Source of the DNA: Malacoraja senta
Lineage: Eukaryota
Length of the DNA: 64,000 nucleotides
Assembly (NCBI GenBank): GCA_038087875.1
Contig: CM075996.1
Span: 4,900,001 to 4,964,000 of the forward strand
Direction: 5' to 3'
Position 1 is the stretch's first letter. Every line of letters begins with the position of its first letter. This document shows, piece by piece, positions 4,244 to 55,006 of this stretch. Made by a program: the position numbers and the translations under genes. The notes below the pieces were generated by a model that did no database searches, was not told the origin of the DNA, and worked only from the letters and a program-made list of their open reading frames with translations.

Positions 4244-4271
4244 CTGAGGAAGGGTCTCAACCCGAAACGTC
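4244..4271 (+). ncRNA. Minimal type-I hammerhead ribozyme motif in a Penelope-derived element
   Basis: CTGAGGA-A-GGGT-CTCA-ACCC-GAAA-CG-TC: core, 4-bp stem II, palindromic ACGT stem III, GUC triplet. Confidence 0.55.
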
Positions 4272-5493: not shown

Positions 5494-5509
5494 GGTACTT
5501 CTCACTCCT

Positions 5510-6232: not shown

Positions 6233-6342
6233 CTCTCCAGCCACTCCTTGAAGAAGCGCAGCTCGCCCATGTGCAGCACGCTCGGGCTCCCTTTGCAGTG
6301 CTGCACGAAGGCGCTGAGATCGCGGAGTTTCTGCGCGTCCAT
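6233..6342 (-). CDS. ST13: ST13 coding exon 1
   Basis: ATG at 6342; MDAQKLRDLSAFVQHCKGSPSVLHMGELRFFKEWLE(S) matches the Hip N-terminal dimerisation domain; donor AG|GTGAGG; 110 nt; in a CpG island. Confidence 0.93.
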
Positions 6343-6830
6343 CGTGCTCCGTTGCTGCAGCTTCGCCTCCTCCCCCTCCCCGCGCGCGCGCGCCAGTCGG
6401 TCTCAGCAGCCGCACCAGCAGCTCGCGCACCTTCTGGCGGAATCTTCTGGAACTAGCTCTCCCGCCTCCCGCCAGCTTCGGAGTCAAGACTCCACCCCCT
6501 TTAAAACCAACAAAACCATAGTTTAATATGAAACTTTTACTTTTGCCGGCAACATAACGAAACTTGCTGTGAACCTCTCCTGACAATTGGCACCCCCGGA
6601 TTTTTTTTAATGTATTTTAATAGCCGGCAGCGACGCGGACGCCCACGAGGTGGCTCCTGACCGTTGAACCTTCGTGACCTTCCAGCCCGCCAATGGTTGG
6701 TGAGCATTACGTCATCCCCGACCAATGGGCGGGGGCTACGGCACGGGCAGCGCGCCTGCGGTTGAGAAGGACCGGGCGGAGGGGGATCCTCGCCCAATGA
6801 CGGGGAAGAACAAACATGGAGAACCCGTGG
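6343..6830. promoter_or_regulatory. CpG-island bidirectional promoter ST13/XPNPEP3
   Basis: CpG-rich. Perfect HSE GAAtcTTCtgGAA at 6440-6452, degenerate HSE at 6666-6683, CCAAT boxes at ~6690, ~6722 and ~6794, CRE-like TTACGTCA at ~6707, GC boxes. Confidence 0.75.
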
Positions 6831-7156
6831 AGATTTGATCTCGGTTTTTAGATCTAACGAGTTATAAATGAAGGCGCGGATTGACAATGATTCCCCAAAC
6901 TGTAAGAAACATCAGTTCTGCTGTAAAGACTCTCAGGATTCAAGGTCAGAGTCTGAACCTCCCTCCAAGTCCTTTGGTGATCCGGGGGCTGATGGTGTGA
7001 TTTGGGAGCGCACTGTTTTGTTGTATGGAAGGCTCGGTGTTAAATGGGCAAAGTGGCTCAGTTAAAATCGACCCTCGTAAACTAAACTAAAACAACCCTT
7101 GACGAATGTCACCACCTGTGACTTTACTCAGTTCCATCATTTTTGTCCCTCTCAGT

Positions 7157-7185
7157 CTGAAGAAGGGTCTCGACCCTGAAACGTC
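7157..7185 (+). ncRNA. Minimal type-I hammerhead ribozyme motif
   Basis: CTGAAGA-AGGGT-CTCG-ACCCT-GAAA-CG-TC: 5-bp stem II with canonical spacing. Confidence 0.55.
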
Positions 7186-9329
7186 ACAAACCGTCTCTGG
7201 ATGCTTTCAAGAGAGAGCTCTTAAAATTAGCGGAGTCAGGGGATATGGGGAGAAGGCAGGAACGGGGTACTGATTGGGGATGATCAGCCATGATCACATT
7301 GAATGGCGGTGCTGGCTCGAAGGGCCTACTCCTGCACCTATTGTCCATTGTCACCCACTGCTTCTCTCCAGAGATGCTGCCTGACCCGCTGAGTACCACT
7401 TTACAAGCTAACTCAAGAGTTCTCCCGAGTTGCCCCTGATTCGAACTTGGAGAATTACGGTAATAGCCGTTCGTAGGTACTCGGGGCTCTCATTGGCATT
7501 TTTCAACATGTTGAAAAATCTTCACGATCTTACCGCGTTTCCCGAGTACCTGCCGTTAGCGTTACCAGCCGCTAAGAGACGTCCCGAGCTCCGACGTACC
7601 CGCTACGTACATTCTACGTGCTTACCACGAGTTTGATTTTTTTTTTAACTCAGGAGAGCTCTTGGGTAACCTCGTATAGTGGGATAGGCCCATTACTCCA
7701 GCATTTTGTGTCCACCATCTTTCTACCAGTTAATCTGTCCTGTTTTTCATCCTCAAACCGTTTGTGTTCTTTCCACACTCTCTGCATCTTAAAGAAGGGC
7801 CTAGGGTTCACCTGGATCGAGGGCGCTCCAGTATTTCCAACATGTGTATTGGATTTTGGATTATTTTTTTATTTTTCTTTGTAATGAACACCAAAATATG
7901 GTCACTGTGCATTTGTGAGTAATGCAAAAGAATTTAACTGTGCTGTGCATGCGTGAAAATAAAGAACCATTGAAGGCTGCACTGTGACGTAGTTGATCGA
8001 ACCACTGGAGATGCAAAGAACTGCGGATGCGGGGATCTCGAGTAAAACAAAGTGCTGGAGGAACTCAGTGTGTCAGGCAGCATCTGTGGGGGGAATGGAT
8101 GGGTAACGTTTTGGGTCAGGACAGTTCCTCAGAACTGATAGAATCTCGACTGCAACATCCGTGCTTCATCCTAAATTCGGCTGCTGTCTGTGTGGCATTT
8201 GAACGTTCTTCCTGTGTGGGTTTCCTCCTGCAACACAAAGAGGGATGGGTGGTCATTAAATTGCCTCTGCTGTTTAGATGAACAGTAGAGTCTGGGGGGT
8301 AACTCATGGAGATGTTGGGGAAGTAGTGCCAAAACGTTGCCTGTCCATTCCCTCCATAGATGCCACCCAACTCACTAAGTTCCTTTAGCACTAAGTTTTG
8401 CTCAAGATTCCGGCACCTGCAGTTCCATTTGAGTTTAGCTAATGGGGAACATTAATAAGGGATGGGACTGCTCCCTGGCTTAGCATACATTTGAGACTTC
8501 ACACTTCATCACAGGGCTTCACACTAGGTCATAAGGCAATACAGTAACGATGGCTAAAACAGCTTATATCCTCCTTCATGGACTGATTGAGTGGGGGGAA
8601 AAGAGACTTCTACACATTAAAAGTTCTGATGGAGAGTCCCTGACCTAAAATGGTGATTCTATTGATTTCTATCGATACTGCCTGACCTACTGAGATTGTT
8701 CAGCGTTCTCTGTATTCATCTTAAAAATTAAAGTTCTCATTACTTTCTCTAAGTAGACTGCCATCACAGTTAAATATTGCTAACGCATAGGATAATACTC
8801 AGAGTCAAGCAACATCTGTGGAGTGAGAAACAATGTTTCAGGTTATTGGATTTTGATCAGAACTCTGAAAAATTAGAGCGAGAACAAGTTTTAAGATTGG
8901 AGAAACTAGTTTGGAGAGTATGCGAATGATCAGACGGTGAGGAACAGGAGAGATGAACTGGTAAAAAGTTGATGGAGCAGAGTGTAAGAGGGTGGTGCAG
9001 GAGTAAGTCACAACTGGCGACATTTATCAAGAGAAGAGGCTGTGAAAGCATGTCTTGGTAGAAACCTGATCAGAATGGACAAGGAAAATTTAATCTAGGG
9101 TTTTCACCATGTGAATACGATCTTAAAATTGAATACATGTTTTTTTTCAATTTAATATGTCATTTACAATATCATCTGCTCTTACTATTTCCCTACTTAT
9201 TGTAGGCTTTTAAAAAAATAAAAGTGTTGTAAAAAATATTGTTCAGATTATTGCATTGTTGAATATGGGATTGTTCTCATCTGCGATGATATCCATTTTG
9301 CTGGACCAACAGAGGTCACGTAATACACA

Positions 9330-9925
9330 CAATACACCTCAGACCCACAAATTATACCCCTCTCATGTCTCTAAAGCACTATGATCTGCTAGAACCTTAA
9401 TTAAAACAAATATTAAATAAATATGTGGATTTCAAATATGTTTGAAACATTACACCTAGAAGAGATAAGACTCCTCCTAGCAGGTAAACCAGATCATTTC
9501 CACCTGACGTGGTCTGCATTTATAGAATTATTACAAACATAAGGTGCAAAAGTACTTAAAAAAAAAAATTGAGGTCAGGTAAGGGGGGATGATAGTTGAA
9601 GAGTTGGTATGTCCAATTTGCGTAATGCTCATAAAAATATTTGTTTCTCTCTTTTTCCTCTTTCTTTCTTTTTTTCCTAGGGTCTATTTCTTAACTCTTT
9701 TCTTTTGTTTTTAATTTTGCTCTTATAGGGTCTTTGTCCTTTTTTGTTGTCACATTTCCTACACTTCCACTTTTTCCTTCACTTTCTTCTTTCTTTCAAT
9801 CTTTTCCTTTTCTAGTGTAAAAAATAAATGGAGTACATTAATTGTAAGAAGATATAAATGACAAGTACTAATGTATGTGGTTGTAATGTAATGTACTTCT
9901 AATAAAATACAAATTAAAAAAAATA
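9330..9925 (+). mobile_element. L1-clade LINE 3' fragment
   Basis: ETLHLEEIRLLLAGKPDHFHLTWSAFIELLQT* (~9443-9542) resembles the ORF2 C-terminus, followed by a T-rich 3'UTR, AATAAA and an A-rich tail. Confidence 0.6.
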
Positions 9926-11060
9926 TATATATATATTAAATATAAATTAATTTTACATCAAAATTTGCATTTCTTGCATGGGCAGCCTGGTGCCAGTTAA
10001 AAAGTTGCCCTCGTAGTCCAAATTAGGGTCGGAACGGTGGCCGTCCGCATGACCAAGGCGCTGTTTTTCTGGCAGGACTACCGGGTAGACCCCTGACAAT
10101 TTGCCAAAAATGCAGTAGGGCAGGTGCCCGCCTACCACCTGACGTGGGTCTCCGAGAAGAGGTCAATGGTCCGCCGGGTGGGCCGAGATTCCAGCCTACA
10201 AAGTCATCCATGGAAGTTGGCTATGGGAACGGATTCGCCGGCTCTGGTCGGGTGAGAGTTCCAGAGACCCAGCCATAGGGAGCAAAATTGACCTGCTGAT
10301 CGGCAACGAAAGTCCCGATGAACCTCAGATAGGCCTCCTCACCCGACCTAATCATCACCTAAGGGCGGGGGCGGGGGGGGTATTTCAATGTGCGCTCTCA
10401 TAATTTTGCCTGGATTAAAGGAAGTGCTGGACAAACCATTTCCGGAAAATCAGTGGTGGATTTGTACCAGAGACACTCAAAATGCGCATCAAAAATTACT
10501 GTGAGGAACAATTATATAGTATCAAAAGTGGCATACCTCTCTAGAACTTCAGTGTTATCAAATGAAATATTGTTCCTTGAATGCAACATTTGTATTATTA
10601 TTTAATCTTGATAGTTCAGGGTTTTGCTTTAGTGACAGTGATGTAACAAGATGTCTAAGTCCTTTTGGTGTAATGTTACCTATCATGCATGTTCCATCCC
10701 ACATCCCAAAGAAACCTGATTCAGCCAATCTAAAGAAAGGTCCTAACCTGAAATGTTGGGACCCTTCCTACTTCCTCTCTCTGATGGGAGACCCTCTCTC
10801 ACAGCTCCACCTCTGTGAATTAATCAGAAGGGTCCAAACCTGAAATGTCACCTCTCCATGTTCTCCAGAGATGCTGCCTGACCCACTGAGTAACACCAGC
10901 ACTTTGCCTTTTTTTTTAGTAAACCAGCGATTCCTTGTTTCTAAAATAAATTCAGTTATTATGTTGGAAGGACTAGTGAATATGTACACAGTGTGAACAT
11001 CACTGAAACTTTAATCATTTTAACCTGGATTTAATAGCTCTTTATATTTTCTCTCCTTAG

Positions 11061-11177
11061 GATGTACAAACTGCCTCTACAAGAGATTTTCCATCATGCC
11101 ATCTGGGCAGAAGAGTCTCCCCACTCGCTATCTTGGGCAGCCCAGTCCTTTTACACACCCCCATCTCCTCAAGACAG
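11061..11177 (+). CDS. XPNPEP3: XPNPEP3 (Xaa-Pro aminopeptidase 3) coding exon 2
   Basis: TAG|GA...ACAG|GT; CTNCLYKRFSIMPSGQKSLPTRYLGQPSPFTHPHLLKT; 117 nt. Confidence 0.92.
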
Positions 11178-11950
11178 GTTAGTAAAAGATTGTGACATGA
11201 TTAATCTGTAGTCGGGATTTTCAAACCAAGCAATCAAGCCAACATAATCGGACAAGGATAGTTCTCTGTGTACTTGTGCTGTTTCATTGCTGATTTCAAA
11301 GTTGTGGCCTTGAGGTTTGGATGAAACATATACTGTAAATCATTAGAATAGTAACATCTGCTGGATAGTAAGGTTGGATGCCTTTATTTATTTCTCTGGG
11401 GGATCTGAGCATCAATGCAAGGCTAGCATTTGCTGCCCTTCCCTAATTGTCTTACAGAGGGTAGTAGTGAGCCACCTCTTGACCTGCTGCAGTTGTGATG
11501 AAGGTATTCCCACAGCAACCGGAAATATATTGCTTTTCTTTCAGCATCGCTGGATCCAAATCCTAGAATTCCCTACCTAATTCCAAGTGAACGTACAGCA
11601 ACCTTGGAGGAGAACCTGCAGTTTGTAGCCATTCTTGTGTTATTAAAGTTATTATTGGTGCTAGAGTTTCTGTATTTGGAAGGTGTTTCCAGAGTAGCGT
11701 CAGCAGGTAACTGCAGGGCATTTTGCAGTTGGTACATACTGTAGCCACTATGCACTGGTGGTGGAAAGATTGAATGTTTAGGATAATGGTTAGGGTAGTG
11801 GCCAGGTGGATTTAAGATGTACATTAGCAAGGATCTATTTGGAAAGCTTAAAGGCACAATTTGACATGGCCTCTGCATGTTCTACATTCTCAATGAAATT
11901 ATCTGCAATTGAGGAGGTTGTTGGAACTTGCACATTTGAATATTTTTTAA

Positions 11951-14180
11951 TATTGAATTGAATATGAATTGAATATAACTTTAATTGTCATTCAGGTATA
12001 CACATAGACACAGTGCGCATTGAACGAAATTTCGTTGCATTAACTCTTCAAAGTAGCAGCAGAATATAACATTTATATCAGGCGATCAGTAAAAGTGCTT
12101 AGTGTGTCCATAAAAAAGTGCTTCATGTGCATAGTTAAAAAAGGAACGTTTTTTAAAGTGGCAATGAATAAGAAAGTTCTAGCATCGGTTTGATTGTGAG
12201 TTCAATAGTCTTATGGCCTGGGGGATGAAGCTGTTGCAGAACCTGGTTGTCCCGCTCTTCATGCTGCGGTACCTCCTCCCAGAGTTCAGCAGTGTAAACA
12301 GTCCATATTGTGGGTGTGCGGGGGCTCTGGTAATGCCCTTAGCTCTTGACAGACAGCGTTTGTAACCAATGTCCATGATGGAAGGAAGAGAAGTCCCAAT
12401 GATTTTTTCCGCTGTCCTCACCACTCTCTGAAGGCACTTCCAGTCCGCAGCTGTACAGCCGCCGCACCACATAGAGATGCAGCTGGTCATGACTGATTCA
12501 ATGGTGCTTCTGTAGAATGTGGTGAGGATGGGAGGGTGGAGGTGTGATCTTCTCATCCTGCGGAGGAAGTACAAACGCTGCTGTGCCCGTTTTACCAGAG
12601 ATGTGATGTTTGTAGTCCAAGTTAAGGTATCCGTTATATGCACTCCCAGGAACTTGATGCTTTTCACCTGCTCCACTGCTAAGTTGTTGATGCACAGCGG
12701 AATGTGACTGGGCTGATTTTTCTTTCTGAAGTCGACGACAATCTCCTTGGTTTTGTCCACATTTAGGAGAAGGTTGTTCCTGCTGCACCAGCTCACCAGC
12801 TGCTCCACCTCCTCTCTGTATGCCTGGTCGCCGTTGTTGCGGATGAGGCCCACTACTGTTGTGTCATCCGCGTATTTGATGATATGGTTAGTAGTGGACC
12901 TGGCGACACAGTCATGTGTCATCAATGTGAAGAGCAGCGAACTCAGGACACAGCCCTGAGGGGAGCCGGTGCTCAGTGTGATGACCGAGGAGGTGTTCTT
13001 CCCCACCCGCACAGACTGGGGTCTTTCAGAAAGGAAATCCAGGATCCAGTTGCATAGTGTGGTATTGAATCCTAGGGGTGCCAGTTTGCTCACCAGATGC
13101 TGGGGGATTGTCGTATTGAATGCTGAGCTGAAGTCAACAAACAGCATCCGCACGTTGGTGTTCTTCTCCTCCAGGTGTTGTAGGCTCAGGTGGACTGCAG
13201 AGGAGATAGCATCCTCTGTGGAGCGGTTCGGGCGATAAGCAAACTGGAACGGGTCAAAACTGGAGGGGAGTTTGGAAACCATGTGCTGCTTAATAAGCCT
13301 CTCAAAGCACTTCATTATTATTGGTGTGAGTGCTACGGGGCGGTAAGCATTCAGGCAGGTTATTGTGGACTTTTTGGGAACTGGTATGATGGTGGCTGTC
13401 TTGAAACATGATGGAACAATGGCCTGGTTCAGGGAGGTGTTAAAAATGTCTGTCAGAACCAGGGCCAGCTGGTCGGCACATCCCCTAAGCAGACACCCCG
13501 GTATGTTATCCGGTCCGGCTGCCTTTCGCTTGTCAATGCCCTCCAGGATTCTGCGGACTACAGCAGTTTCCAAAGACAGTGTCTGTTCTCCTGGTTGAGG
13601 CTCTAATTTCCTCACTATAGTGGTGTTCAGTGCCTCAAACCTGCCGAAATGATTATTGAGTTCATTGAGAAAGTCTGTGTCATCCTTACAAGACATCTGA
13701 GGGGCCTTGTAATTTGTTATGGCCCGGATGCCTTCCCACATGTTCCTGGTGTTGGTATCATCCTGGAAGAAACCCTGGATTTTCTGTCCGTGGGCGCGCT
13801 TTGCTTTCCTTATTTCACGGTTAAGGTTGGCTCTCGCTGTTCTCAGAGCCCCCAAATCACCAGATTTAAAAGCCGCATTCCGTGCTTTCAGCATGGCACG
13901 CACCTCTGCAGTAATCCAAGGTTTGTGGTTGGCCCGGGTTGTGATGTTCCTGATGACAGTGACGTCCTCCATGCACTTCTGTATGTATCCCGACACAGAC
14001 ATGGCATACTCATCCACATTGATGTTTTGATTGTAAGTGGCTGCTGTCCTGAACATGTCCCAGTCCGTGCACTCAAAGCAGTCCTGGAGTGCTTCTATAG
14101 CTCCCTCAGAACAGACTCTAACCTGCTTCACAGTGGGTTTCTCTCTGATCAGCAGGGGCTTATAGGCTGGGATGAGCATT
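11951..14180 (-). mobile_element. Rex1/Babar-type LINE, 5'-truncated, uninterrupted 666-aa RT ORF (12179..14179)
   Basis: RT motifs [38 protein letters not shown] and YREEV; ATTCA-type microsatellite tail near 11951-11975; antisense in XPNPEP3 intron 2. Confidence 0.92.
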
Positions 14181-14963
14181 ATTTTTAAGCTTATAATTGA
14201 ACTTTCGTCTTTAGGCTTGTTGAGGATGTGATTTTACAATGTAGGACTAAGTACCTTGAGGATGTCAGTGCCTTAGAACATGAGATGACAGGAAAAATAT
14301 TTAAATGCGTGATTATAGTCTTGGTGACATTATCTTTTAGTTTTACTGTTTGCCTTGAGTAGTCTTTTCCCAATTAGCGATAAGTTATGACGTTTTATTA
14401 CGGGTATTGGTTTAAAATACCATTGTTAGCCAAATTGTGGGGCTATAAGTATTTCTTTAGTTCTCAATCTCAGAGGATACATCTGCACCTTAGAATTGTC
14501 CACAATTCAATATTTAATAAGATAGAATAAACCTGTAGAGACCACATCAGTCTGAAGAAACGTCACCCATTCCTTCTCTCCAGAGATGCTGCCTGTCCCA
14601 CTGAGTTACTCCAGCATTTTGTGTCTACCTTCGATTTAAACCAGCATCTGCAGTTCTTTCTTACACGAGACCACAATCATGATTGACATTAGAAGATTCA
14701 AACTCACATTTTTTTAAATGAAAATAGAAAATTTATTTTAAAAGAGGAAGCACTTATTTTAGTACAATGTAGCATCTCTCATATTAGAGAGCTGCAGTGA
14801 AGGATGGTTTATAGAATTATGAAAAATGAAGTTGATCTTTTGACAAAACTGTCCGTATTGACATTTATGTTTTATAGAAGCTTGCTGTCATTCTGTGCTG
14901 AGTGCAGCAGCACATTGTGGTCAATTAAAGAGTGTTACTGGGGTGTTTTTGCTTCATTTACAG

Positions 14964-15371
14964 GTGAGGTCACTCCTGGGTTGACACAGATAGAATATGC
15001 ACTGCGTCGGCACAAACTGCTAAGCCTCGTCCAGAAAGAAGCTGAGACCCTAGGATCTTCTGACCACGCCATTATTCTGCTGTCCCACCCCACATACTAC
15101 ATGACGAATGACATCCCATTTTCATTCCACCAGAACACAAACTTCCTCTACCTCTGTGGCTTTCAAGAGCCAGACAGCATTCTGCTGCTCCACACTATCC
15201 CTGGAATGAGCCTGCCTTCCCATAAAGCCGTCCTTTTTGTGCCAAGGAGGAACGAAAACCGAGAGCTATGGGATGGCCCAAGATCTGGGGTAGATGGTGC
15301 TGTTGCCCTGACAGGAGTGGATGAGGCCTTTAATATGGCAGAATTCAGACAATATTTGCAACAGTTTAAAG
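14964..15371 (+). CDS. XPNPEP3: XPNPEP3 coding exon 3
   Basis: CAG|GT GAG...[25 protein letters not shown]...[18 protein letters not shown]...ELWDGPRSG; 408 nt. Confidence 0.95.
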
Positions 15372-16090
15372 GTTGGTAACATCTAACTTTCACAGACTTG
15401 GAGAGTAGTGCTGGAAGATAAATTGATGATTTCATGCACCAGCCACAGAAATTGATCAATGGAAAATGGAACTCTTCCACGTTTAGATATCTATTATGCT
15501 GCTGATGCCTAATGCAATCTAACATTGTTAATCTAGCTTTGTAAATTCATTTGTAGCACAGACGAAAGAGAACCTTTGCAAGGAGGTTTAGCTTAAAACC
15601 CACACCCTCCTACCTGACAGCAGATCAGAATAGCAGTGGGTTCCACTGATTTCCAGTTAACTCTGCAGTAAAGTATACAATGTTCCAGTATGGATTGAAA
15701 CCTGCAAACATTTGACCATCTGTCTTGGTATGGGGACGTAAAAAGGTGCAGCACAGAAGTAGGTGTTTCAGCTCATTGGATCTACATCGACCACTCATTT
15801 ACACTAATCTCATTTTTATGTCATTGTATAATTTGATGTCAAATTATGTTTGATAGGAATCAGTGGAAGGTCTAATATTTAATCATGTCATACAGCACTG
15901 GAGGAAACAATTGAGTCTATGGCAGCCCTTTGGTAGAGTAAATCCAGTTATTTCCATTGATTGACTTTCTTCATCTCTTTTCCTGCAGATTCTTCTTCCA
16001 AGTATTTATCCCAATTTTCTTGATGTGAATGCAAGTCACACTACTGACTGATGAATTTTGCCCACCTCCCCCTCTCCGTCTCTCATTTAG

Positions 16091-16293
16091 ATGAAGGGTG
16101 CACGCTGTGGTATGACAATGAGCCATCTGTCCACTCAGTGTTACATTCAGACTATCTGCAGCCCTTTGTAGATATCAAGACTAAGAGCAAGAATGTAGTC
16201 AAACCGGTGCGGGCTCTTGTCCAGAATCTGCGACTTATCAAGTCAGACACGGAGATTGAACTCATGAAGATGGCTGCAAAGATCACCTCAGAG
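16091..16293 (+). CDS. XPNPEP3: XPNPEP3 coding exon 4
   Basis: TAG|AT...GAG|GTAGGT; LWYDNEPSVHSVLHSDY...LRLIKSDTEIELMK; 203 nt. Confidence 0.95.
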
Positions 16294-17503
16294 GTAGGTT
16301 GAGTTGGAGACATTGACAGACTTGGATTGCAGTGATGGTATTTTTGTTAAAGGGAAAACAGTTTTTTTTCCTAAACCTAACAGTTCCCTCAAAAGGGGAG
16401 TCTGCAATTGAGAATCAGACGGTTAATAGGATAGGGAATTTGGGATATTCAGGAGAGCGAGGAAAGTGTGCAAATTATAATACAATAAATTGTGGTGCCA
16501 AATGGATGAGTTCATTTGAAGGAAAGCTAAATAAATACCTGGAAGGAAGTGAGAAATGGTGTTCATGCTAATGGGAAGCTCTTCTGGGTCATTAATGCCA
16601 GCAAAGATTAGTTGGCTGAATGGACTTATGCCATGCTTGAAATACTAGATAACAAAGCTGAAGGTAAGGCCTCCTGTATAGAATAGAAGCAAGAAACAGC
16701 AGATGCTGGGTTTACCTGAAAAAAGTTACAAAATGCAGGAGTAACTCAGCGGGTCAGGCAGCATCCTCGGCAAACATGAACAGGTGACATTTCCGGTTGT
16801 GACATTTATTCAGACTTCTGAAGAAGGGTCCTGACTGAAACGTCTCCTATCCATGTTCTCTAGGGATGCTGCCTGACCTGCTGAGTTACTCCAGGACTTT
16901 TTGCCTTTTTTGTCCTCCAGTATAGAGTGTTCTTCTTCACATTGTCTCAATCAATTGTGTAGTGCCACACTCCACAATTGTAACAACTCCACCTGTGATT
17001 CCCTCTCACCTGACTCTCAGTCTGAAGAAGGGTCTCGACCCGAATCGTCACCCATTCCTTTTATCCAGAGATGCTGCCTGTCCCACTGAGTTACCCCAGC
17101 ATTTTGTGACTATCTTCGGTGTAAACCAGCATTTGCAGTTCCTCCCTACACATTCACCTCAGCAACGATCTACTATGGACTTTGCTTCTAGTTGCACTAT
17201 ATATTTTGGTTTTGTACAGTTATGGTCAGAGATTAATTTATTGTATTATTGATTATGGTATATTTATTTGTGTTTTTGTTTTAATGGACCTGTAAAGCTG
17301 CAACGAGTAAGAATTTGATTGTTCCGTTCCCGTTACATATGACGATTAACCCCCTTGACACTCAAATAAATTCCAATCTTGATGTGTCTACCTAGCCCAG
17401 TGTCTCCCTGAGTAAATACTGTTGCCTGAGCATCAAGTTGTTTCACAAAGACTGCAGATAATTAAAGAACTAATACAAAGCTCTTTTTTTTTTTAATTTT
17501 CAG

Positions 17504-17566
17504 GCAATGAGCAGTACAATGTTTTCAACCACATCTCCAGTTAATGAATCCTATCTTTATGCAAAG
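17504..17566 (+). CDS. XPNPEP3: XPNPEP3 coding exon 5
   Basis: CAG|GCA...AAG|GTGAGG; AMSSTMFSTTSPVNESYLYAK; 63 nt. Confidence 0.93.
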
Positions 17567-17877
17567 GTGAGGAACAACATTTCAGACTGGATACTGTTTT
17601 GATCTGTAGCAGTCAAGTGTACATGGGTTGACTGTCAATGAGAATCGGTCATCAAAACATTTAATACAGTTCAGGCACCCATTTAGCAGACCCTAGCAGA
17701 TAGAGGTATCCAATTAATCATCTTTCTGCTGCTTTACATACCTGCACATGTTTTTGTGTGTCAAATATTTTTCCAGTGTTTAAGAAGGAACTGCAAATGC
17801 TGGAAAATCGAAGGTAGACAAAAATGCTGGAGAAACTCAGCGGGTGCAGCAGCATCTTTGGAGCGAAGGCAATAGGC

Positions 17878-17905
17878 AACGTTTCGGGTCGAAACCCTTC
17901 TTCAG
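17878..17905 (-). ncRNA. Minimal type-I hammerhead ribozyme motif (UUCG stem-II loop)
   Basis: Minus strand CTGAAGA-A-GGGT-TTCG-ACCC-GAAA-CG-TT; the element is flanked by the TSD TTTTTCCAGT (17768, 17915). Confidence 0.55.
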
Positions 17906-18429
17906 ACTGATTTTTTTTTCCAGTTTCCTTTTGAAAGTTACCATTTAATTTGATTCCATTTTCCATAAAATAACATCAATTTAAAACTTTAAAGTAATAA
18001 TAGGTTCTGATTATAGAAATAATAGGTACTGATTTCTGGTGACATCCTTGAGGTTAACTTTTGACTCCTGGCATTTTAAGATTTATTCTTAAATATAGCT
18101 ATTGATGTTAAGAGTTTTATCAGAAGTATTGGACACAATTCCAATCACACTGGAAGTAACCTGCATTCTTTTTAAGTCTCTGATATTCTTCAGTTATTAT
18201 CCATAAGCTCCTGTCCTGTTATGTCATATATGCACTTATGCATGCACTGTTTGAATTGGCATTGTGATTATTTTAATTGAGAGAATGCAATCCTATTCTC
18301 AATGAGATGTTTTATAGTTTGGATGCTAATGTGTACAGATAACGTATTGGGTTTCTGTATAAGGCAAATTAAATGCATTGAAGGACGTTATTTCTTTGCT
18401 TATGATTCCACAACGTTTCTACATTGCAG

Positions 18430-18543
18430 TTTGACTTTGAGTGCCGAGCTCGAGGAGCAGATCTCCTGGCCTATCCTCCCGTTGTAGCTGGTGGCAATCG
18501 TTGCAATACTCTGCACTATGTGAAAAATAACCAGCTGGTTCAG
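18430..18543 (+). CDS. XPNPEP3: XPNPEP3 coding exon 6
   Basis: [42 protein letters not shown] bounded; 114 nt. Confidence 0.95.
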
Positions 18544-20299
18544 GTAACGATGTAGCCCTTCCTTAGTAAATGTTGATAAAGAAGAGATTTCTGTGCACTT
18601 TCCACTGATTGATACCTCTGTGACTGTTCATCTGGCTCTTTGGATGGCAACCCTCATCAGCAGTCTGCTTGATGTATAACTCTGTCCTTTGAAGTGACTG
18701 GAATTTTCTCATGTATATTCATTTTGGTTTTCTGTAAATCCAAAAATCCCTTGATTTTTTGTTGATCTCTCATTATGTTCCCTGAAATCTCTCGTCACCT
18801 GTGCTTTTCATCTCCTAAATATCTTATGCGGCTTAGTGTGAAACTTTATTTGACAATGCTCCTGTGTAAGTGCCCAGGGACGTGTTATGAAGTTAAATAA
18901 AATTGTATTCTTTGTTATTGTGATCTGACTGGACATCATGTGCTTATCATAAAGCAGAGACAGAGTTGCCTACAAATGCTTCAATGTGCTCAGCTAAGAT
19001 CTGGAGGTGAAAGAGCTAGTTACAAGAGAATTAGCAAGAATGTGCTGGGATAAATATCCTGGCTTACTGTTTCTTATCTTCCTTGCATGACTTTCAATCC
19101 AACCTGAAATAAGTGAATTATAATTATCTACCCTCCGTTTCTGAAAACCCATCTTGTTAGATCTCTGAGAAAGAATATTTTATTTTTCATATTTTTATAC
19201 AACATAGGGAGGAATCACTTGGCCCTTCAAGTCTTTGCCAGCTCTCAGAGGATTCTCATCAGCTACACTCCCCATTCATTCCCCTGTAACATATTTCCAC
19301 TGGCGTCTGTCAACCTCCCCCGGTTCTCATGTCACCTACATACATTAGCGGGACATTACAGTAGTCAATTGATCTGCCAACCGACACATTCTTGGGCGGT
19401 GGGAGGAATTGGGAGCACCTGGAAGAGAGACACATGGCCACACAGAGTACACACAAACTTCACACTGATACCACCTGAGGTCAGAGACACACCTGGGTGA
19501 CTGAAGCTACGTAAGAGCACCATGCAACTGTTGTCCAACTGTGCCACCCATATAGTGCTAAGTCATACTGACCAGAGATGCCATAAATCTGTGTGTGATT
19601 TAGCTCCCCTCAGTTGCAATGGTAATATAATGCTGCATTTAATCTCTGTAGTTAGGAAACAATTAAATGCAGGTAGGATTCCTGCATTTCAGCAACCTTG
19701 TCACCATTTTGGGTGTAAACAATATCATTTACTTGAAGTTGCCCATCAAAGTAACCAATATTATTGTCACATCATGAAGATACTGGAAGATGTCAACCGG
19801 CCCTCTATATTTACCAGAATAAAGAGATGTTTGAAAGTAAAATGGAGTGTCCTGAAGTTACAGAGGGGAGGGTATTACTAGTTTCCCCATCTCTTGCTGC
19901 TAATAGAAATTCATCAAAGCAGGGCACATTTTCATAAGATGTGATCAACTAGCTAAAAACAGATGGTGAAAATCAAAAATTAAAACTGAAAATGTTGACC
20001 CTGCAACATCTCTGGAGAGAGAAACAGAGTTAAGGTTTCAAAACTAGTGGATTGAAATTACCTAGGTGTGGGCATCTTATCAGGACCAGGCTGTTCAGGA
20101 ATTATGTCAGAAGACATTTCTAAATCTACAGGGCGAGGAAATCTGCAACTCTCTTCCCAAAAATAGTTTTGAGGCTGGGGAGCAAATGTCAGCACTGAGA
20201 CTACTTGGTCATGTTGTACTGGGATATTCAGAGTGTTGGAGCCAGAGCAGAGAGGTGAAGCTTAGATACAAATCAGGGGCACGACAGCTTACTCTTCAT

Positions 20300-20600
20300 T
20301 CTCTGCTAACCTCCAGATTCAGGGACAGTTTCTTCCCAGCTGTTTTCAGGCAACTGAACCATCCTACCAACAACTAGCAAGCAGTCCTGAGCTACTATCT
20401 AGCCTATTGGAGACCCTCAGACTATCTTTAATTGGACTTTACTGGACTTTATCTTGCAGTAATCGTTATTCACGTTATTCCCTTTATCATGTATCTGTAC
20501 ATTGTGGATGGCTCAATTGTAACCATGTATTGTCTTTCCGCTGACAACAAAAGCTTTTCACTGTACCTCGGTACACGTGACAATGAACTAAACTAAACTA
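20300..20600 (+). mobile_element. Rex1-type LINE 3' end with (AACTA)n tail
   Basis: TSRFRDSFFPAV motif followed by a 3'UTR and tail; homologous to ~28400-28715. Confidence 0.7.
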
Positions 20601-20626
20601 ACCCATTTACTCCATTATTTCGCCAG

Positions 20627-20712
20627 GATGGGGAACTGGTTTTGTTGGATGGAGGGTGTGAATATTCTGGCTATGTCAGTGATGTCACTCGAACCTGGCC
20701 TGTTAATGGAAG
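20627..20712 (+). CDS. XPNPEP3: XPNPEP3 coding exon 7
   Basis: [28 protein letters not shown], containing the M24 peptidase metal-ligand Asp residues; 86 nt. Confidence 0.95.
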
Positions 20713-21909
20713 GTAAGACACAGAGTTTGAATTTGCTCCAGGCCCCGTTTGTTTCCCTTTCTTTCCGAAATGGTTAACTCCCACCAGGTATGTTTCAGTA
20801 AGCCCCACCGATCCTTGTTCTCCAAATAAATATATTGTACTGACCAAATGGACACAGTGCATGAAACAGTAGATCAAAGTCAAGGCTGCTGTGCACTTTG
20901 GAGGAGTGGGCGTTGGTTGTCCTTTTCAGCAGGAAAGTATTGAGTGACATGAAGCAAAATGATGAGAGCTGCAGAAGTACAAAATGAAGTGCTTCAAATG
21001 GCTCTCTACAAAACTCACATCAGTCCGTTTATTGTAGAATTTAAAAGCTCACAAAAATAGCAACTTTCATCATGGGACATGTCTTCTTCTTAAAAGCCAG
21101 CAGGTCAGCTCAGATCTCAAGCTTAAAACTGCTAAACACAGGCTGAAGCAAATCCTCCCACTTCATTTAAGTGTCAACTGATGGAAACTTGTGCTGAGCC
21201 AAATGAGGTATCGCCAACTCCCTCAAATTTCCCCTGCCTTAGAGTACGCATTTGATTAGGAATAATCGGTTGCCAGGATAAGGGTAAATAGACCTTTTCA
21301 ATTCAGTTAATTTAAATACATTTAATTGCACTGTGTATGTGCTTTATATATTTTTAAATTTATTAAAATACTTTTGATTTTGAAAGCTGGTGAATCTCAG
21401 TGACGTTTTGCCAGCTAATGAGCCTGGGATTGGGGGCTTCACCAGGTATCAAACAAGTGCTGGAAGTAGACCCAGCCACTTGGACTTGCAGAGACACAGT
21501 ACCATGCTGGGCATTACAATCAGTTATGAGCATGCCTTCCTGTGAAGTATTGAATTTAAGATCACTCTGGATGGTCCGAGGGTATGTGACCAGCAAGCTT
21601 GGAGGACTTGCCATTCGGTCCAACCTACATGGTGAGACTGCGGAATAGTCAAGGGGAAAATGGCATTGCTACATTATGAAGAAACGGAAAAATGTACGAT
21701 AGAGGAAGGAAGAGGAAAGGGTGCATGGGGGCTGGAGGAATTTCACATAGAGCATAAACACTGCTCAAGCCACTGTTCCTCTGTTGTGAATTTCTGCAAT
21801 TCTAATCCTAATAATTCCAATTCTAATTCTAATATGTCACACAAATGTCTGATGTTAGCCTTGCTCTTTCCTGCAAGAAAGTACTAAGTAGCTTATTGCT
21901 TTGCTGCAG

Positions 21910-22090
21910 ATTTACAACGCCTCAGTCTGAGCTGTATCAGGCCATTCTTGATGTTCAAAAGTCCTGCCTGAGTCTCTGCACTCCTGGGATAAGTCTGGAG
22001 AACATCTATGCTTTCATGTTGAATCATCTGGGACAGAAGCTGAAGGACGTGGGAGTTCTGCAGGATAAATGCCAGCATGATATTTACAAG
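21910..22090 (+). CDS. XPNPEP3: XPNPEP3 coding exon 8
   Basis: FTTPQSELYQAILDVQKSCL...HDIYK|GTTAGT; 181 nt. Confidence 0.95.
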
Positions 22091-23363
22091 GTTAGTTACA
22101 AAGCCAGACAAATAAAAATCTATAAGCTGAACTGACATGGCTACAATTGGGTTATCAAGCATTTGGAAGGCAAGCGGACTGGTTTAAAGATAAGAACCAA
22201 ACACTATTCCCTGTGAGTTTATGTGTAGCGAGATTACCATTTCATAGGTAGAGAAAAATGCCGGAGAAACTCAGCGGGTGAGGCAGCATCTATGGAGCGA
22301 AGGAATCGGTGATGTTTCGGGTCGAGACCCTTCTTCAGACTTCTTACCATTTCATAATTCTTCAAACCTTTTTTTTAACCTTCTCTGCACATGGCACAAA
22401 CCAAACCCAGTTGTATTAGTACTTCGAAGAATAGTGGGGCATTTTAGCCCCAAGGACACTGCATCCTTGTGCCAAATCAACTTGAAGCCATGTACTTCCT
22501 GTCCGGGCTGAAATCCTTATTAATCTGAAGAGTCCTGACCCGAAACCTCACCTATCCCATTTCTCAGAGATGCTGCCTGACCTGCTGAGTTACCCCTGCA
22601 CTTTGTGTCTTTCTTTGGTATAAACCAGTATCTGCACTTCTTTGTTTCTACATCACAGGATATTGGTTTGGAGAAGGAACTACTGGTGAATTCTCCATTA
22701 GAAATTACAGGACATTCCAGGTGATTTTCTCAGGAAGATGGCAGTGCAGTTAGCTTGCTCCAAAGTGATGTACAGAGCAGTCACCAGCAGAAACACAAAA
22801 CAAATTGATTATTGTTGAGAGTCTAAAATTAGAAACAAATTCCAATTGTTTACTGTTTTAATTTTTAATCCTTAACATTTATATATTTTCTTGTATATAC
22901 AGTACTCTGGAGAATGTTCACAGGAACAGGCAATGAGGCCTAACTAGTCCTTGACAGCCCTCTCATTCCCCCCTTCCTGTAAACTAATTGAAAATTGCTC
23001 AACTTGTTGATATCCTCTATTCTACTGTTTTTTAGTGCCCCAGTTTGCTAATTCTGGGAGCATAAAAATATAGTACGGCGAGGCCATTCAGCCCTCCATG
23101 CCTATGGCCATGGCTGATCTTCCATCTCAATGCAACTTATTGTGCTCTCCATGTCCCATATCACGTGTGTCTAGAAATCTATCTGTCATTGTTCTGACCT
23201 TCCCAGCCTTCTATGTTCACTATTGTCTGAGTGAAGGAATTTCTCCCCATCTCAGTATGTGCATACTTGTGTGCACACACTTCTACTTTTATGTCATTAA
23301 GTGAGTTGTCTTTTTGTATATTTTTTAAAACCAAACTTAATGCAATTTGACATAATGGTCATT

Positions 23364-23690
23364 GAGTCAGCACAGTAGGGCAGCGGTAGAGTTGCTGCCT
23401 CACAGCGCCAGAGGCCCGGGTTCGATCCTGACTGCGGATGCTGTCTGTACGGAATTTGTACATTCTCCCTGTGACCACGTGGGTTTTCTCCGGATGCTCT
23501 GGTTTCCCGCCCACATTCTAAAGACGTACAGGTTTCTGGGTTAATTGGCTTCAGTAAAAACTGTAAATAGTTCCAGTGTGTAGGATAATGTTAGTGTATG
23601 GGGTGATTGATGGTCAGACTCTGTGGGACAAAGGACCTGTTAACGTGCTGTATCTCCAAAGTAAACTGAAGTAAAGTAATCAAAGTAACT
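23364..23690 (+). mobile_element. HE1-like V-SINE (tRNA-derived head, V-domain)
   Basis: A/B boxes (GGTTCGATCC), V-domain GTGGGTTTTCTCCGGATGCTCTGGTTTCC and a short-repeat tail. Other copies at ~2050(+), 19210, 34590, 45310, 49670, 50500, 57020 and 62090(-). Confidence 0.8.
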
Positions 23691-23709
23691 TGGTGTCCTG
23701 ATTCTCTAG

Positions 23710-23830
23710 ACTGTTCGCAGGTACTGCCCGCACCATGTAGGACATTACCTGGGGATGGATGTCCATGACACACCAGATATCTCACGATCTATAGCCCTGC
23801 AGCCTGGCATGGTGGTGACCATCGAACCTG
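23710..23830 (+). CDS. XPNPEP3: XPNPEP3 coding exon 9
   Basis: [40 protein letters not shown], the catalytic His/Glu motif; 121 nt. Confidence 0.96.
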
Positions 23831-24727
23831 GTAAGAAAGCAGAGGATAATAATACTGAAATTTAACTCGCACAAGCTCATTAATTTCAAGGAAGTTTTGC
23901 AAACTGTCTTGAGCTGATTTTTAGCCGAGATTCAGATAGTCAGATTATAGATGGTTAAATCCTCGTTCACATTCTTTTACAGCAAATACATCTATTTGTC
24001 CATCTTGTCCATCACTCTTATCTGCTGGACTATTTCTCAAACACGGCCCACAGAGCCTGTTTTTAAAATGTATGACGTCCACAAACCATAGAGTGTCTAC
24101 AGTAAACAGCAGAGCGTGATTAAGAATCTGCTCCCCATTACTCTGGTGTTCTAATCGGATCAATATCATACTCAGTAGCACACAAAAATAGTGGTATGAA
24201 AAGCACACCAGGTTCCTGGAGACTCTGCCCTCCAATGTGGCCTCCTCTATACTCGAGAAACAGATTGGACGATTGCTTTGGGGAGCACGTGCACTCAGCC
24301 CACAGGAGTGACCCTGGGCTTCCGGTTGCCTGGCATTTTAATTCACCACCCACTCCCACTCTGACCTCTCTGCATGTTGCCTTCTACCCTGTTATGAGGC
24401 CAAACAAAAGCTGGAGGAACAACGCCACATTTTCCTTCTGGGCATAATACAAGACTCAATATTCAATACCCTAACTTCAGATAACCTGTTCTTTCTTTCT
24501 ATTTGTATCAGGACTGGCCATTTGCACCTTCCATTCCTCTTCCCCCTTCACTTTTCTTTTTGCATTTATGTAGCGTGTCCTCACATCTCAATCAGCCAGA
24601 CTATACAACATCAACCTGACTTCTCAACATTAGCAACACATTACACAGACAAAGGAGCTTAACTTTCAGTTTAAACTTGAAACGTCACCTATTCATGTAC
24701 TCCAGAGATTTTGCCTGACCCATTGAG

Positions 24728-25092
24728 TCCAAATCCAACCTTTCAGTCCTGGGCCTCCTCCATGGCCAGAGTGAGGACCACCGTAAATTGGAGCAGCATC
24801 ACCTCATATTACGCTTGGGCAGTTTACACCCCAGCGGTATGAACATTGACTTCTCTAATTTCAGGTAGTCCCTGCTTTCTTCTCCCCTTCTCAGGTCTCC
24901 CTCAGCCCACTGTCTCCGCCTCTTCCTTTCTTCTTCCCGCCCCCTCCCCACCCTCGCATCAGTCTGAAGAAGGGTCTCGACCCGAAACGTTGCCTATTTC
25001 CATCGCTCCATAGATGCTGCCTCACCCGCTAAGTTTCTCCAGCATTTTTGTCTACCTTCAATTTTCCAGCATCTGCAGTTCCTTCTTAAACA
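24728..25092 (+). mobile_element. Penelope-like element 3' end (GIY-YIG C-terminus and terminal repeat with hammerhead motif at 24964-24991)
   Basis: Degenerate ...EQHHLILRLGSLHPSGMNIDF, then CTGAAGAAGGGTCTCGACCCGAAACGTT. An older copy lies at ~24200-24480. Confidence 0.8.
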
Positions 25093-25458
25093 CTGAGTTA
25101 CTCCAGCGCTTTGTGTCTTTTTTTTGTAAACCACGCCTGCATTTCCGTGTGCCTAAAAGAGCTTAACTGTCTGTTCAATGGCTGTCCATTCTTTCACCCT
25201 ATTACTGACATTCTCTTTGCATCACCTGTGAACCTCCCTACATTCCCTCTCATGAACCCCCACCTCCAACCTTCCAGGAAAATGCCTTCACAATCCAACA
25301 GTTGCTATGAACTTGGTAATTCACCTTAAGTTGCTAACATATATCCTCCTACATGCTCCAGGATAGCCACCAGTCACCTACCACTGCGAGTACTTGAAAG
25401 CTTACCCTTGGCTGTATTTCTGTTAAATTTCCTTTTGATATCATTGTTCCCATTGCAG

Positions 25459-25622
25459 GAATATATATCCCAGAAAATGACACCTCTGCTCCACCAAGGT
25501 TTCGGGGAATTGGAATTCGGATTGAGGACGATGTGTTGATAATGGATGAGGTGCCGGTTATTCTTTCTGCTGACTGCCCGAAGGAATTGCCAGAAGTAGA
25601 AAAGATCCTGAACTGCCATTAA
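25459..25622 (+). CDS. XPNPEP3: XPNPEP3 last coding exon (10)
   Basis: GIYIPENDTSAPPRFRGIGIRIEDDVL...ADCPKELPEVEKILNCH*; TAA at 25620-25622. Confidence 0.95.
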
Positions 25623-26114
25623 CAAGCAAATGCTGAAAACCTCATCAATTCAGGATTTTATAATGTGGGAAGTAACAGAGAAAGGTCACAAGTGAATCCA
25701 GCACCTTTGCTCAGTCAGTGATGGCTCTGCGTGTGAGAATGTCACCACTTTATTCTGAAGTCTGCCCAAATGTGTAAAACCACAGTAATACATACACTGC
25801 GTTAGATTTTATAACAAAGATATGAATTCCAAGCACTAATGTATTGTCTGAAGGTAGGAGCAATGTTGAGAACTTTTAAATAAATGGATAGGAAAGGAAC
25901 CATTGCACCTGCCCCTTTAAAGCAAAGACGTCTCAAAATTCCCAGTAACTGCTGTCTGCCAGTGGTCATCCTTTTTTGAGGGGGGGGAACTGGACCACCA
26001 TAATGTGAACCCATCATGAAAGTGTCCATGTATAGACTGTGAATGATAAAGTAATCAGGCAAAGGTGGATGATAAAGCTTCTCGATTCTTATGTGGAGTA
26101 ACCTTGCCTCTAAT

Positions 26115-28952: not shown

Positions 28953-30618
28953 GTACCTCGTCCCGTTCCTCTCGGAACCGCGAAACCGAATTTGTGAAGA
29001 GCGAAGTGCGCTGAAGGGAACGAAACTGTAATAACTTCAAAAAGATCGGCGGCTATGGCGGAGGGAATGGGCCCGCCGGTCAGATTAACGACGGCGTCGT
29101 CCATTTAGGGCGGGGCGTCGGCGTGACTGACGTCAGCGTCTCCGTTCGGGGCGGGGCGTCCGTGTGATTGACGTCCGCGTCATTCAATTAGGGTGGCGGT
29201 TTGTCCAAAGGCACCAGCCAGAGCCAATGGTTGAAGGGAGTGCGGAAAGGGGCGGGTTCTGAGAAGGGGGCGAGGCCGGTGGGTGGGTGGGGGCGGGGCC
29301 GGTGGGTGGGGGCGGGGCCGCGGCTACTACCCGCTTCAAAATGGCCTTGCGAGGCGGTGGCTGGTTAGCTAGCCTGAGGTCAAGTGTGTTTAATTGTCAT
29401 ATATCCCAGACAGAACAAATACATTCTTACTTGCAGCAGCACAACAAATAATAAAAAATAATAATACAAAAAAATAGTTAACAAAGTACACTTATAAACA
29501 ATATAATGAATGAGAGAAAAAAGAGTCCAGTGTGTGTGTGTATGTATGTGTATTAAATATATATAATATATACACACACTCACATATATACTGAAGTCTG
29601 AAGAAGACCGGAAACGTCACCCATTCCTTCACTCCAGAGATGATGCTCAGTTACCCCAGCATTTTGTGTCTACAATTTAAACCTCAGTTTGTACCTCGGT
29701 ACAGGTGACAATAAACAGCATCTGCCGTTCCTATCTACACATATACAGATATATATATATACACACATACATACATACACAGAAAACAAACAGTAATAGT
29801 GCAATAATAGTATCTGTAGTTCAGAGCTTATTTGAGGTTGTAATGTTTAATAGCCTAATGGCTGTAGGAGAGAAGCTGTTCCTGAACGTGGACGATACAG
29901 CTTTCAGCCTCCTGTACCTTCTTCCCGAATGCAGGGGTGATATGACCAGGGTGGTGAGATTCTCTGATGGCTTCCATCAACATGCGTTTGAGTGGGTCAA
30001 GTGCAGCTTAATGACCTGCAGCCCCCAAAACATCCCTAATCTTAGAGGCAGTCTGACAGCAGACTTTTTGTGGATTAGGGCAGACCGGTTCTGAAAAAAA
30101 ACCGTTCAGGCTTCACAAAAGTGATTTGCTCAGTCCTAGTTTCTTATTCCAAATTTCTTCGCACAGGCAATTGTCTGAGACAGAACTAGGCTGTAAGCAA
30201 GGAACTGCAGATGCTGGTTAATACACAAAGTGTAGGAGTAACTGAGCAGGTCAGGCAGCATCTCTGGATAACATGGATAGGTGAGGTTTCAGGTCGAGAC
30301 TGCAGAAGGATTCTCTATAGCTGTTGCCTGACCCGCTGAGTAACTCCAGCACTTTGTGTCCTTTTAGGCTTTAAGCAACCTGGTTTTTCCCTCTTAGGGT
30401 AAATCTACTCAGTTTACCCCCATGTGAGTTACCAGAAATATCTACACCATCGTCAAAATGTTTTTATGTGCTTAACAACATCCACTTTGTCCTTGCTTCA
30501 ACTCCTGTTGTTGAAATTGTTATGCTCCACTACTTTAGACAATAGGTACCCCAATCAGTACCCCATTCCTGCCTTCTCCCCATATCCCCTGACTCTGCTA
30601 TTTTTAAGAGCCCTATCT

Positions 30619-31372
30619 AATAATAATAATATCTTTTATTGTCATTGCACGTCAGTGCAACGAGATTTAGTATGCAGCTCCACTGATGTACAAGAAAAGT
30701 AAGATAAATAAATAAGCAAGCTGAGTGACGTGACCATCCGAGGGAGACTGTCCAGGGGGGGTGGGTGGGGGGGCACTCAGCAGGGCCGGTTCAGAGCCGC
30801 TATAGCTCTTGGAATAAAGCTGTTTCTGAGTCTGGAGGTTCGGGCGTAGAAGGCCTTGTAACGTCTGCCGGAGGGAAGTAGTTCAAACAGTTTGTTACAA
30901 GGGTGTGATGAGTCCTTATGGATGCTGACGGCCTTCCTGAGGCACCGTGTGTGGTAGATGCCCTCCAAGGCTGGTAGCTCTGACCCAATGATCCTCTGCG
31001 CTCTGTGGACGACGCGCTGAAGAGCTCTCCTCTCCGCCTCCGTGCAGCTGAGATACCACACAGAGATGCCATACGTTAATATGCTCTCTGTGGTGCAGCA
31101 GTAGAACGTTGTCAGCAGCTGTTGGGGCAGACCAGTCTTTTTTAATGTCCTCAGGAAGAACAGTCGTTGCTGTGCCTTCTTGACCAGCGTTGGTGGACCA
31201 TGTGAGGTCCTCTGAAATGTGAGTGCCCAGAAACTTAAAGCTGGACACTCTCTCCACACTTTCCCCATAAATGGAGATTGGGGCGTATTCTCCATTATGG
31301 GACCTCCTGAAGTCACTAATCAGCTCCTTGGTCTTGGAGGTGTTTAGTGACAAGTTGTTATGAGCGCATCTA
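30619..31372 (-). mobile_element. Rex1/Babar LINE 3' fragment (frameshifted), nested in a CR1 3' fragment
   Basis: LNTSKTKEL...FKFLGTHI / KKAQQRLFFLR...LLPSGRRY in two frames; (TAA)n tail; splits the host sequence GAGCCCTATCTA|GCTCTCTCTTGAA. Confidence 0.85.
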
Positions 31373-31756
31373 GCTCTCTCTTGAAAGCATCTATGGACTT
31401 TCTTTGGACTTCAGTCTTTTATATTCCAAACTGCCTTCGCTCTCATGCTCTTCTTAATCTTGGTTATTGTTTGCTTAAACTATGCTTAGAATGGAAAGAG
31501 TTGGACTGGTTGAGTAAAAGTTTAACATGGTAAAACCTTTAGGATCAGATCTTTCACCCAACATAATAAACATTTCCATTACCAACTTAAGGTTGTATCC
31601 TGACCCACAATATCATCCACAATTTCGACCTAGGACAACTACAGCAAATTCCTGTTTATTCTACACTCTTCCTCAGAGTTAATCTGCACTGGCCCAAGTC
31701 ATCTCCTTTGTCCAAAGTTATCTTCACGAGGCCTTAGTCATAGATCTTTAATGTGA

Positions 31757-54790: not shown

Positions 54791-54846
<56 letters not shown>

Positions 54847-54965
54847 TCTGCTGCTGTTGCAAGAGCTGTCTTCGCATCAAGAGCTCCCGGAATTGGGAGT
54901 TCATACTGGGATGGCTCATGTTCATGGACTGTCCTTGTGCATTGATCACACCCATGCTTTGTTGC

Positions 54966-55006
<41 letters not shown>

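Follow-up and report, generated by a model that had tools for sequence, protein, structure and literature searches.

The hammerhead-like motifs dispersed through the 64-kb window (the whole stretch of Malacoraja senta DNA analyzed, 64,000 nucleotides) are very probably insertions, 5'-truncated and dead on arrival, that a very abundant Neptune-type Penelope-like element (PLE) left behind and that carry its minimal hammerhead and are now passengers. The order of the element is the endonuclease end, the stop codon, the pseudo-LTR segment, the hammerhead, and the tail. Sequence comparison indicates that the source elements are under selection for the hammerhead fold, because the motif is positionally enriched and its stems show compensatory changes in relatives found by their endonuclease. 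The element family keeps the hammerhead structure, whereas the genomic copies do not. Minimal PLE hammerheads of this kind are already known, having been described in 2014, and the skate motif is one of them.

The features of the 24964 copy and the other features in the window are given in Table 1. The core boxes CUGANGA, GAAA, and UH are perfect in four window copies and also form the family consensus, and the extra base between A9 and G10.1 is an A in 28 of 29 window copies. The motif pattern of the first-pass annotation has 12 matches in the window at up to three mismatches, and none in 100 shuffles. Its identification of a PLE minimal type-I hammerhead with an ACGU palindrome and an extra A between A9 and G10.1 is upheld by the boxes, the stems, and the position, which support assignment to a PLE pseudo-LTR. 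The Rfam covariance models give no hammerhead match up to E = 5 across the window. GUU, the triplet at the predicted cut, is a poorer cleavage triplet than GUC. A longer stem I was sought and was rejected, since the best upstream/downstream duplexes are weak (-2 to -9 kcal/mol) and their register differs between subfamilies. Four of five hammerhead-containing fragments (from 24964, 4244, and 7157) fold as monomers no more stably than shuffled sequences (z = 0.35 to 1.15). The predicted double hammerhead of 24964 has an energy of -6.5 kcal/mol compared with -20.9 kcal/mol for the best alternative dimer, which sequesters CUGA; this gap is weak evidence, as it is also found in relatives with a longer stem I, and neither Mg2+ nor tertiary contacts enter the model.

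Table 1. Features of the window (positions are those of the 64-kb stretch)
Feature	Position	Strand	Remarks
Minimal type-I hammerhead	24964-24991	+	C3-A9 24964-24970; extra A 24971
Stem II of 24964 hammerhead	24972-24975/24980-24983	+	GGGT/ACCC
3' core of 24964 hammerhead	24984-24991	+	G12-A15.1 24984-24987; C15.2-G16.2 24988-24989; U16.1 24990; U17 24991
Predicted cut of 24964 hammerhead	after 24991	+	GUU triplet
Stem I of 24964 hammerhead	24962-24993	+	2 bp only: G24962-C24993, U24963.G24992; both positions covary across relatives
5'-truncated C-terminal end of PLE GIY-YIG endonuclease	24729-24868	+	Stop TAG 24866-24868
Pyrimidine-rich pseudo-LTR segment of 24964 copy	24869-24963	+	
Tail (~100 nt) downstream of 24964 hammerhead	24992-25090	+	Common to whole family
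Older decayed copy, split by young 24964 copy	24253-25154	+	Endonuclease remnant 24253-24467; broken hammerhead ~24665-24690; tail
Head-to-head fold-back pair	4113-4371		+ copy (4244) intact, antisense to ST13; - copy G12->A
Copy in XPNPEP3 intron 1, sense	7152-7187	+	Core intact, tail missing
Intact copy, antisense to XPNPEP3	17779-17911	-	93% identity to 24964 copy
Copy with G16.2->A, antisense to XPNPEP3	22239-22344	-	Site 22311; ACGU palindrome lost
Partial tandem	41260-41957	-	Mutated hammerhead and tail 41957-41843; CxxC and GIY-YIG ~41847-41474; pseudo-LTR; hammerhead 41374-41347; tail
Second subfamily copy	43968-44533	+	GIY-YIG remnant; 192-nt pseudo-LTR segment; mutated hammerhead at 44423; tail
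XPNPEP3	6887-25700	+	Exons mapped; best named homologue Rhinoraja XPNPEP3, 96%
ST13	first coding exon near 6240-6345	-	HipN
RBX1		+	zf-rbx1
EP300	54104-64000	-	Converges on RBX1

The endonuclease remnant of the 24964 copy matches that at 41794-41474 (tblastn, 74% over 54 amino acids, E = 8e-22), the first few aligned residues belonging to the older copy. GIY-YIG remnants lie on the same strand just 5' of the motif in four places (24964, 41347, 44423, and the older copy near 24670), so that the two reported earlier, at 24964 and 41347, are joined by two more. The Pfam GIY-YIG match of the window remnant (E = 0.0023) is below the curated cut-off; the remnant is a C-terminal GIY-YIG with CCHH, of which one cysteine is gone by deletion, and the stretch at 41847-41474 retains the CxxC half of the linker. 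Shark, skate, and ray homologues have a PLE reverse transcriptase (RT), the DKG motif (P0014), a CX4CX2C linker, and a CCHH endonuclease, and the full CX2-5CxxC linker is present in P0002, P0004, P0005, P0008, P0012, and P0027. Among the best named homologues are Leucoraja PLE-derived proteins (84%). The CX2-5CxxC linker before the endonuclease is assigned to Neptune and Nematis (PMC8557442). The homologues and the short remnant, rather than an RT tree, point to a Neptune-type source element, and Nematis shares the linker. The copies resemble Neptune-clade endonuclease-positive PLEs in the C-terminal GIY-YIG with CCHH, the linker, 5' truncation, partial tandems, and inverted 5' copies (PMC8557442); they differ in that neither a PLE RT nor a full-length element is found within the 64-kb window, and the assignment to Neptune rather than Nematis is putative. 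Fragments of this endonuclease are also found inside the annotated skate and ray host proteins P0002, P0003, P0006, and P0023, where they are probably gene-model errors or exonisation.

Thirty metagenome loci were fetched by the endonuclease alone, and 24 of them extend 250 nt or more past the projected stop and were usable. On the sense strand, and allowing a single mismatch, the motif is found within 450 nt after the stop in 14 of the 24, a density of 14 matches in 12,852 nt of post-stop zone compared with 3 in 207,648 nt elsewhere. When pairing is not required, seven of seven perfect-box matches in the post-stop zone have a stem II of at least 3 bp and a stem I of at least 2 bp, and three of seven do so elsewhere; with one mismatch allowed, both stems and the palindrome are present in 13 of 32 post-stop matches and in 4 of 158 elsewhere. 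When 6 motifs from the window are aligned with 16 from relatives (leaving out L004 and 7157 for their insertions), 85.7% of the cells are paired, compared with 64.0% after shuffling (reached by 0 of 500) and 16 to 34% for slid partners, and both sides have changed in 8 of 10 pairs (matched by 11 of 500 shuffles); these figures are upper bounds, since the rows are related and were picked by a stem-requiring descriptor, and the pairing-free count is the fairer test.

Three of the four stem II pairs change on both sides across families, and G10.1-C11.1 is G-C in 21 of the 22 rows and G-U in 1. Both pairs of stem I are formed in all 22 rows, with four pair types each, by construction. The palindrome at 15.2-16.2 is CG in 19 rows, GC in 1, and broken in 2. 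In L001 and L003, stem II is as in the skate and stem I is swapped from GU/AC to AC/GU. L001 also has the U3-A8 core swap already described for PLE hammerheads (PMC4209133), and the second L003 motif has an AGCU palindrome. Stem I reaches 6 bp in the relatives compared with 2 bp in the skate. Among the window copies themselves, the alignment shows no covariation. Perfect minimal hammerheads with a stem I of 5 to 6 bp also occur away from the matched endonuclease at L003:126(+) and L018:4791(+), and these probably belong to other PLE families.

The skate motif shares the type-I topology, the CUGANGA and GAAA boxes, G10.1-C11.1, the extra base between positions 9 and 10.1, the palindromic 15.2-16.2 without a loop III, and the pseudo-LTR position with the minimal PLE hammerheads of Cervera and De la Pena (2014; PMC4209133), which likewise occur mostly as single dispersed copies, with close pairs on opposite strands. 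Stems I and II are 2 and 4 bp here compared with 4 to 5 and 7 to 8 bp in Schistosoma, and D. virilis is described as having a helix I of 2 bp (PMC4209133). The density is far higher here, at 46 fragments in 64 kb compared with approximately 4,000 to 9,000 motifs per genome in coelacanth and Xenopus, and the available text and supplementary file 2 of PMC4209133 contain no shark or skate. Single minimal hammerheads were reported there to show no cleavage in vitro and dimers to be cleaved weakly, the latter being summarized also in a review (PMC6765202). PAc, a Poseidon element of Anolis (PMC11167929), similarly has a tail that follows a hammerhead at the end of the pseudo-LTR, and insertions apparently made from uncut RNA, but it belongs to a different clade and its ORF begins inside stem II. 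Its ribozyme is described as cleaving only with the element protein and as dispensable for insertion in vitro, and its reverse transcription as starting internally at the tail (PMC11167929). Non-LTR retrozymes (10.64898/2026.07.22.740005) also have PLE-derived type-I hammerheads and are reported in one chondrichthyan genome; they are tandem arrays with a hammerhead per unit, whereas the window copies are single, nested, or inverted. Viral contigs scanned for the motif had 0 matches. No paper on this motif in skates was found in a literature search to which subscription journals and Repbase/Dfam were external, and a term search of 10.1101/2025.06.08.657570 finds no mention of Penelope.

A search with a profile of 17 window copies recovers 46 fragments (E of at most 0.01) of a hammerhead-plus-tail repeat of approximately 135 nt, so the dispersal described in the first-pass annotation is correct and its list of sites was an undercount. 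Among the six sites given there as clean, 4244, 17878(-), and 24964 have the exact pattern, and 7157, 22311(-), and 41347(-) deviate from it; all of the degraded sites were recovered, one at 44423 instead of 44425. The 7157 copy has an inserted T before G12 that can pair with the extra A. Stem II was said to be kept while its loop varies, and the loop variants are indeed present, but 41347(-) has a stem mismatch (GGGT/AACC) and CTCA derives from CTCG by CpG deamination, for which reason the CTCG/CTCA variation was rejected as covariation. The endonuclease remnant within 41260-41957 sits between two mutated hammerheads 578 nt apart. The young 24964 copy spans 24729-25090, nested inside the older copy, and is flanked by an 8-bp near-duplication, CA(T/C)TGAGT, at 24721-24728 and 25091-25098. 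A contig from a related species crosses the left junction of this copy by 32 letters and differs at 31 of approximately 550 positions, the right junction being unbridged; the insertion therefore probably predates the split from that species. The summed contig depth over the motif is approximately 5 to 9 x 10^5 times that of the unique flank in three DNA runs, a figure that is not a copy number and is taken only to mean that the repeat is very abundant. In three copies, at 14552-14570(+), 29598-29620(+), and 63909-63890(-), the stem II hairpin is partly or wholly lost by a clean internal deletion, which might stem from a template jump over the hairpin; the 14552 copy reads CTGAA-GAAACGTC.

The motif is intact in 4 of 23 window copies that span the hammerhead. 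G12, which lies in a CpG, has changed from G to A in 10 of 33 copies, compared with 23 of 69 neutral CpG G residues in the loop and tail (p = 0.82). The non-CpG core letters are 92% kept compared with 74% for the pyrimidine linker (p = 3e-11) and 88% for the downstream conserved block (p = 0.054), and stem II, at 84%, is no better kept than its comparison (p = 0.16). The expected conservation of core and stem over the flanks thus holds within the window for the core against the linker, is at best slight for the core against the downstream block, and fails for stem II. All core letters are the consensus across the window subfamilies, while the loop and linker vary. The retention figures for G12, the core, and stem II fit selection among source subfamilies followed by neutral decay after insertion.

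As predicted in the first-pass annotation, the host genes are ST13, XPNPEP3, RBX1, and EP300, all supported by Pfam or homologues. Human EP300 and RBX1 share one strand. The 24964 copy is in the last XPNPEP3 intron, whose flanking exons start at 23710 and near 25458. Copies within genes are 21 sense and 10 antisense (p = 0.07), where gene limits are those of coding exons and some intergenic copies may be transcribed; this is, if anything, a lean to the sense strand, which fits harmlessness and is also compatible with co-option. The claim that the four pre-mRNAs contain many potential self-cleaving or dimerizing motifs is not supported, as intact sense copies number 2 of 13 in XPNPEP3, 0 of 3 in ST13, 0 of 4 in RBX1, and 0 of 1 in EP300. 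The two are 7157 and 24964, 17.8 kb apart, and nowhere in the window do two intact motifs lie within 1 kb of each other on one strand. Cleavage of host pre-mRNA is thus not supported.

Ten close pairs of copies are head-to-head (e.g., 4113-4371, 16685-16940, and 63794-63990), and each would therefore place one sense and one antisense copy in a transcript, giving long hairpins and not ribozyme dimers; the pair at 4110-4345 folds at -146 kcal/mol (z = -18) with the motif buried. By analogy with inverted Alu pairs, which are editing substrates, such pairs in introns would give long double-stranded RNA and possible editing substrates. The proposal that copies are templated by cleaved RNA and start at position 1.1 was rejected, as a start near the cut site is seen in only 2 of the 46 fragments, and this is consistent with uncut templates. 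In the active element, a tandem transcript would carry two hammerheads paired via the ACGU palindrome, which would be cut after position 17, probably with the help of the element's own protein. Reverse transcription would begin in the tail, mostly on uncut RNA, pass through the hammerhead, and usually end soon past it, often folding back to give the head-to-head pairs; the inserted copies would then be passengers. The intact 24964 copy, which stands alone and has a stem I of 2 bp, most likely leaves with its intron without being cut.

The pyrimidine-rich pseudo-LTR is missing upstream in 19 of the 25 copies that reach C3, and many of these start at TCAGT; of the 19, two (17022 and 51820) keep approximately 20 nt, and fold-back partners are not independent. 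Possible causes are stalling or fold-back of the RT at the UCAG-U-CUGA palindrome, transcription start at TCAGT, which we take to resemble an initiator, or diverged subfamilies that were missed. The segment 24865-24962(+) reads as a 98-nt intron-like sequence (GT, polypyrimidine tract, CAG) that ends at stem I, as does about 41375-41474(-), and a GT is present at equal register in the 44231 subfamily. The acceptor AG is absent from that position in the distant relatives, and the joined form is not among the 15 joints listed of 680. The end of the segment at stem I matches the position of the intron end in the D. virilis PLE (PMC4209133); in D. virilis, the transcription start precedes that intron by 46 bp (PMC2377424), and this speaks against a start at stem I. 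Elsewhere in three genomes, rare head-to-tail joints of the unit (25058, 25094, or 25123 back to 24960-24962) and short core duplications (25001-25005 back to 24961-24970) occur and are candidate retrozyme-like dimers.

These 5' edges, together with the low-depth head-to-tail joints of 97 to 164 nt in three genomes, would also suit a unit of approximately 135 nt that is its own non-autonomous, SINE- or retrozyme-like element, mobilized by the PLE and with its 5' end at the ribozyme edge instead of at random truncations. We consider this unlikely, since the hammerhead-plus-tail runs on from an endonuclease remnant at four sites, copies also start at points spread over the hammerhead and tail, PLE insertion is described as giving fold-back pairs and partial tandems (PMC8557442), and some diverged pseudo-LTRs may have escaped notice, the upstream references numbering only three or four. 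A somewhat stronger, though still doubtful, alternative is that the motif is vestigial even in the skate source elements and is kept for protein binding, as a promoter, or as a splice signal. The short stem I compared with the relatives, the GUU variant, the UCAG-U-CUGA palindrome competing over the core, the ordinary monomer folds, and the hidden CUGA in the best predicted dimer all agree with it, as does the report that core mutants have no effect on insertion in vitro (PMC11167929). However, the stem I pairs are kept with swapped letters next to the same GGGT/ACCC stem II in L001 and L003, and the core letters are the consensus across subfamilies in which loop and linker vary. That an ordinary repeat resembles a hammerhead by chance deserves almost no credence: the missing Rfam match and the ordinary folding energy would be expected of it, but it is refuted by the post-stop enrichment and the stem pairing in protein-found relatives, including the U3-A8 swap of L001 and the AGCU palindrome of L003.

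Cutting or dimerization of host pre-mRNA by intact intronic copies (in practice in XPNPEP3), whether alone, as trans-dimers with other copies, or with a PLE protein as chaperone, is in our judgment very improbable. XPNPEP3 does have two intact sense copies, copies of the family are very numerous, including in a presumptive RNA run (11,238 contigs), the Anolis PLE ribozyme is shown to cleave with the help of protein (PMC11167929), and strong cleavage is reported for one of nine Xenopus retrozyme dimers (10.64898/2026.07.22.740005). On the other hand, the distance between the two copies and, more weakly, the energy of the double hammerhead speak against it, sense copies are not depleted, and G12 is not protected. 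A 2307-nt contig of the RNA-like run aligns to 25458-25700 and departs from the genome exactly at the start of the last exon, as spliced mRNA would, and the Anolis study reports no reads ending at the cut site (PMC11167929). Equally far-fetched is a broader scheme in which perhaps 10^5 to 10^6 skate units have their 5' ends at the ribozyme edge (a transcription start or the intron-like 3' splice site) and the minority that are intact and in sense introns are activated in trans by other copies or the protein, cutting pre-mRNAs like that of XPNPEP3; were it true, PLE activity would cut host pre-mRNAs genome-wide.

Under the preferred reading of truncated passenger insertions, a very abundant skate repeat missed by Rfam can now be labelled as a PLE pseudo-LTR with a minimal hammerhead, and its density in the skate is a natural dataset on the role of the PLE hammerhead, via the insertion ends relative to the cut site. 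Larger importance would follow only if intronic copies cut host RNA. Approximately 170 nt separate the end of the 41260 copy from a tRNA-Gln(CTG) gene (41019-41090(+), 68 bits). Non-LTR RT remnants with RVT_1 and/or ALKBH8_N, unrelated to the PLE, are located at 12179-14233(-), 46412-47912(+), and 30777-31410(-), and one of these three has a 684-amino-acid open frame.
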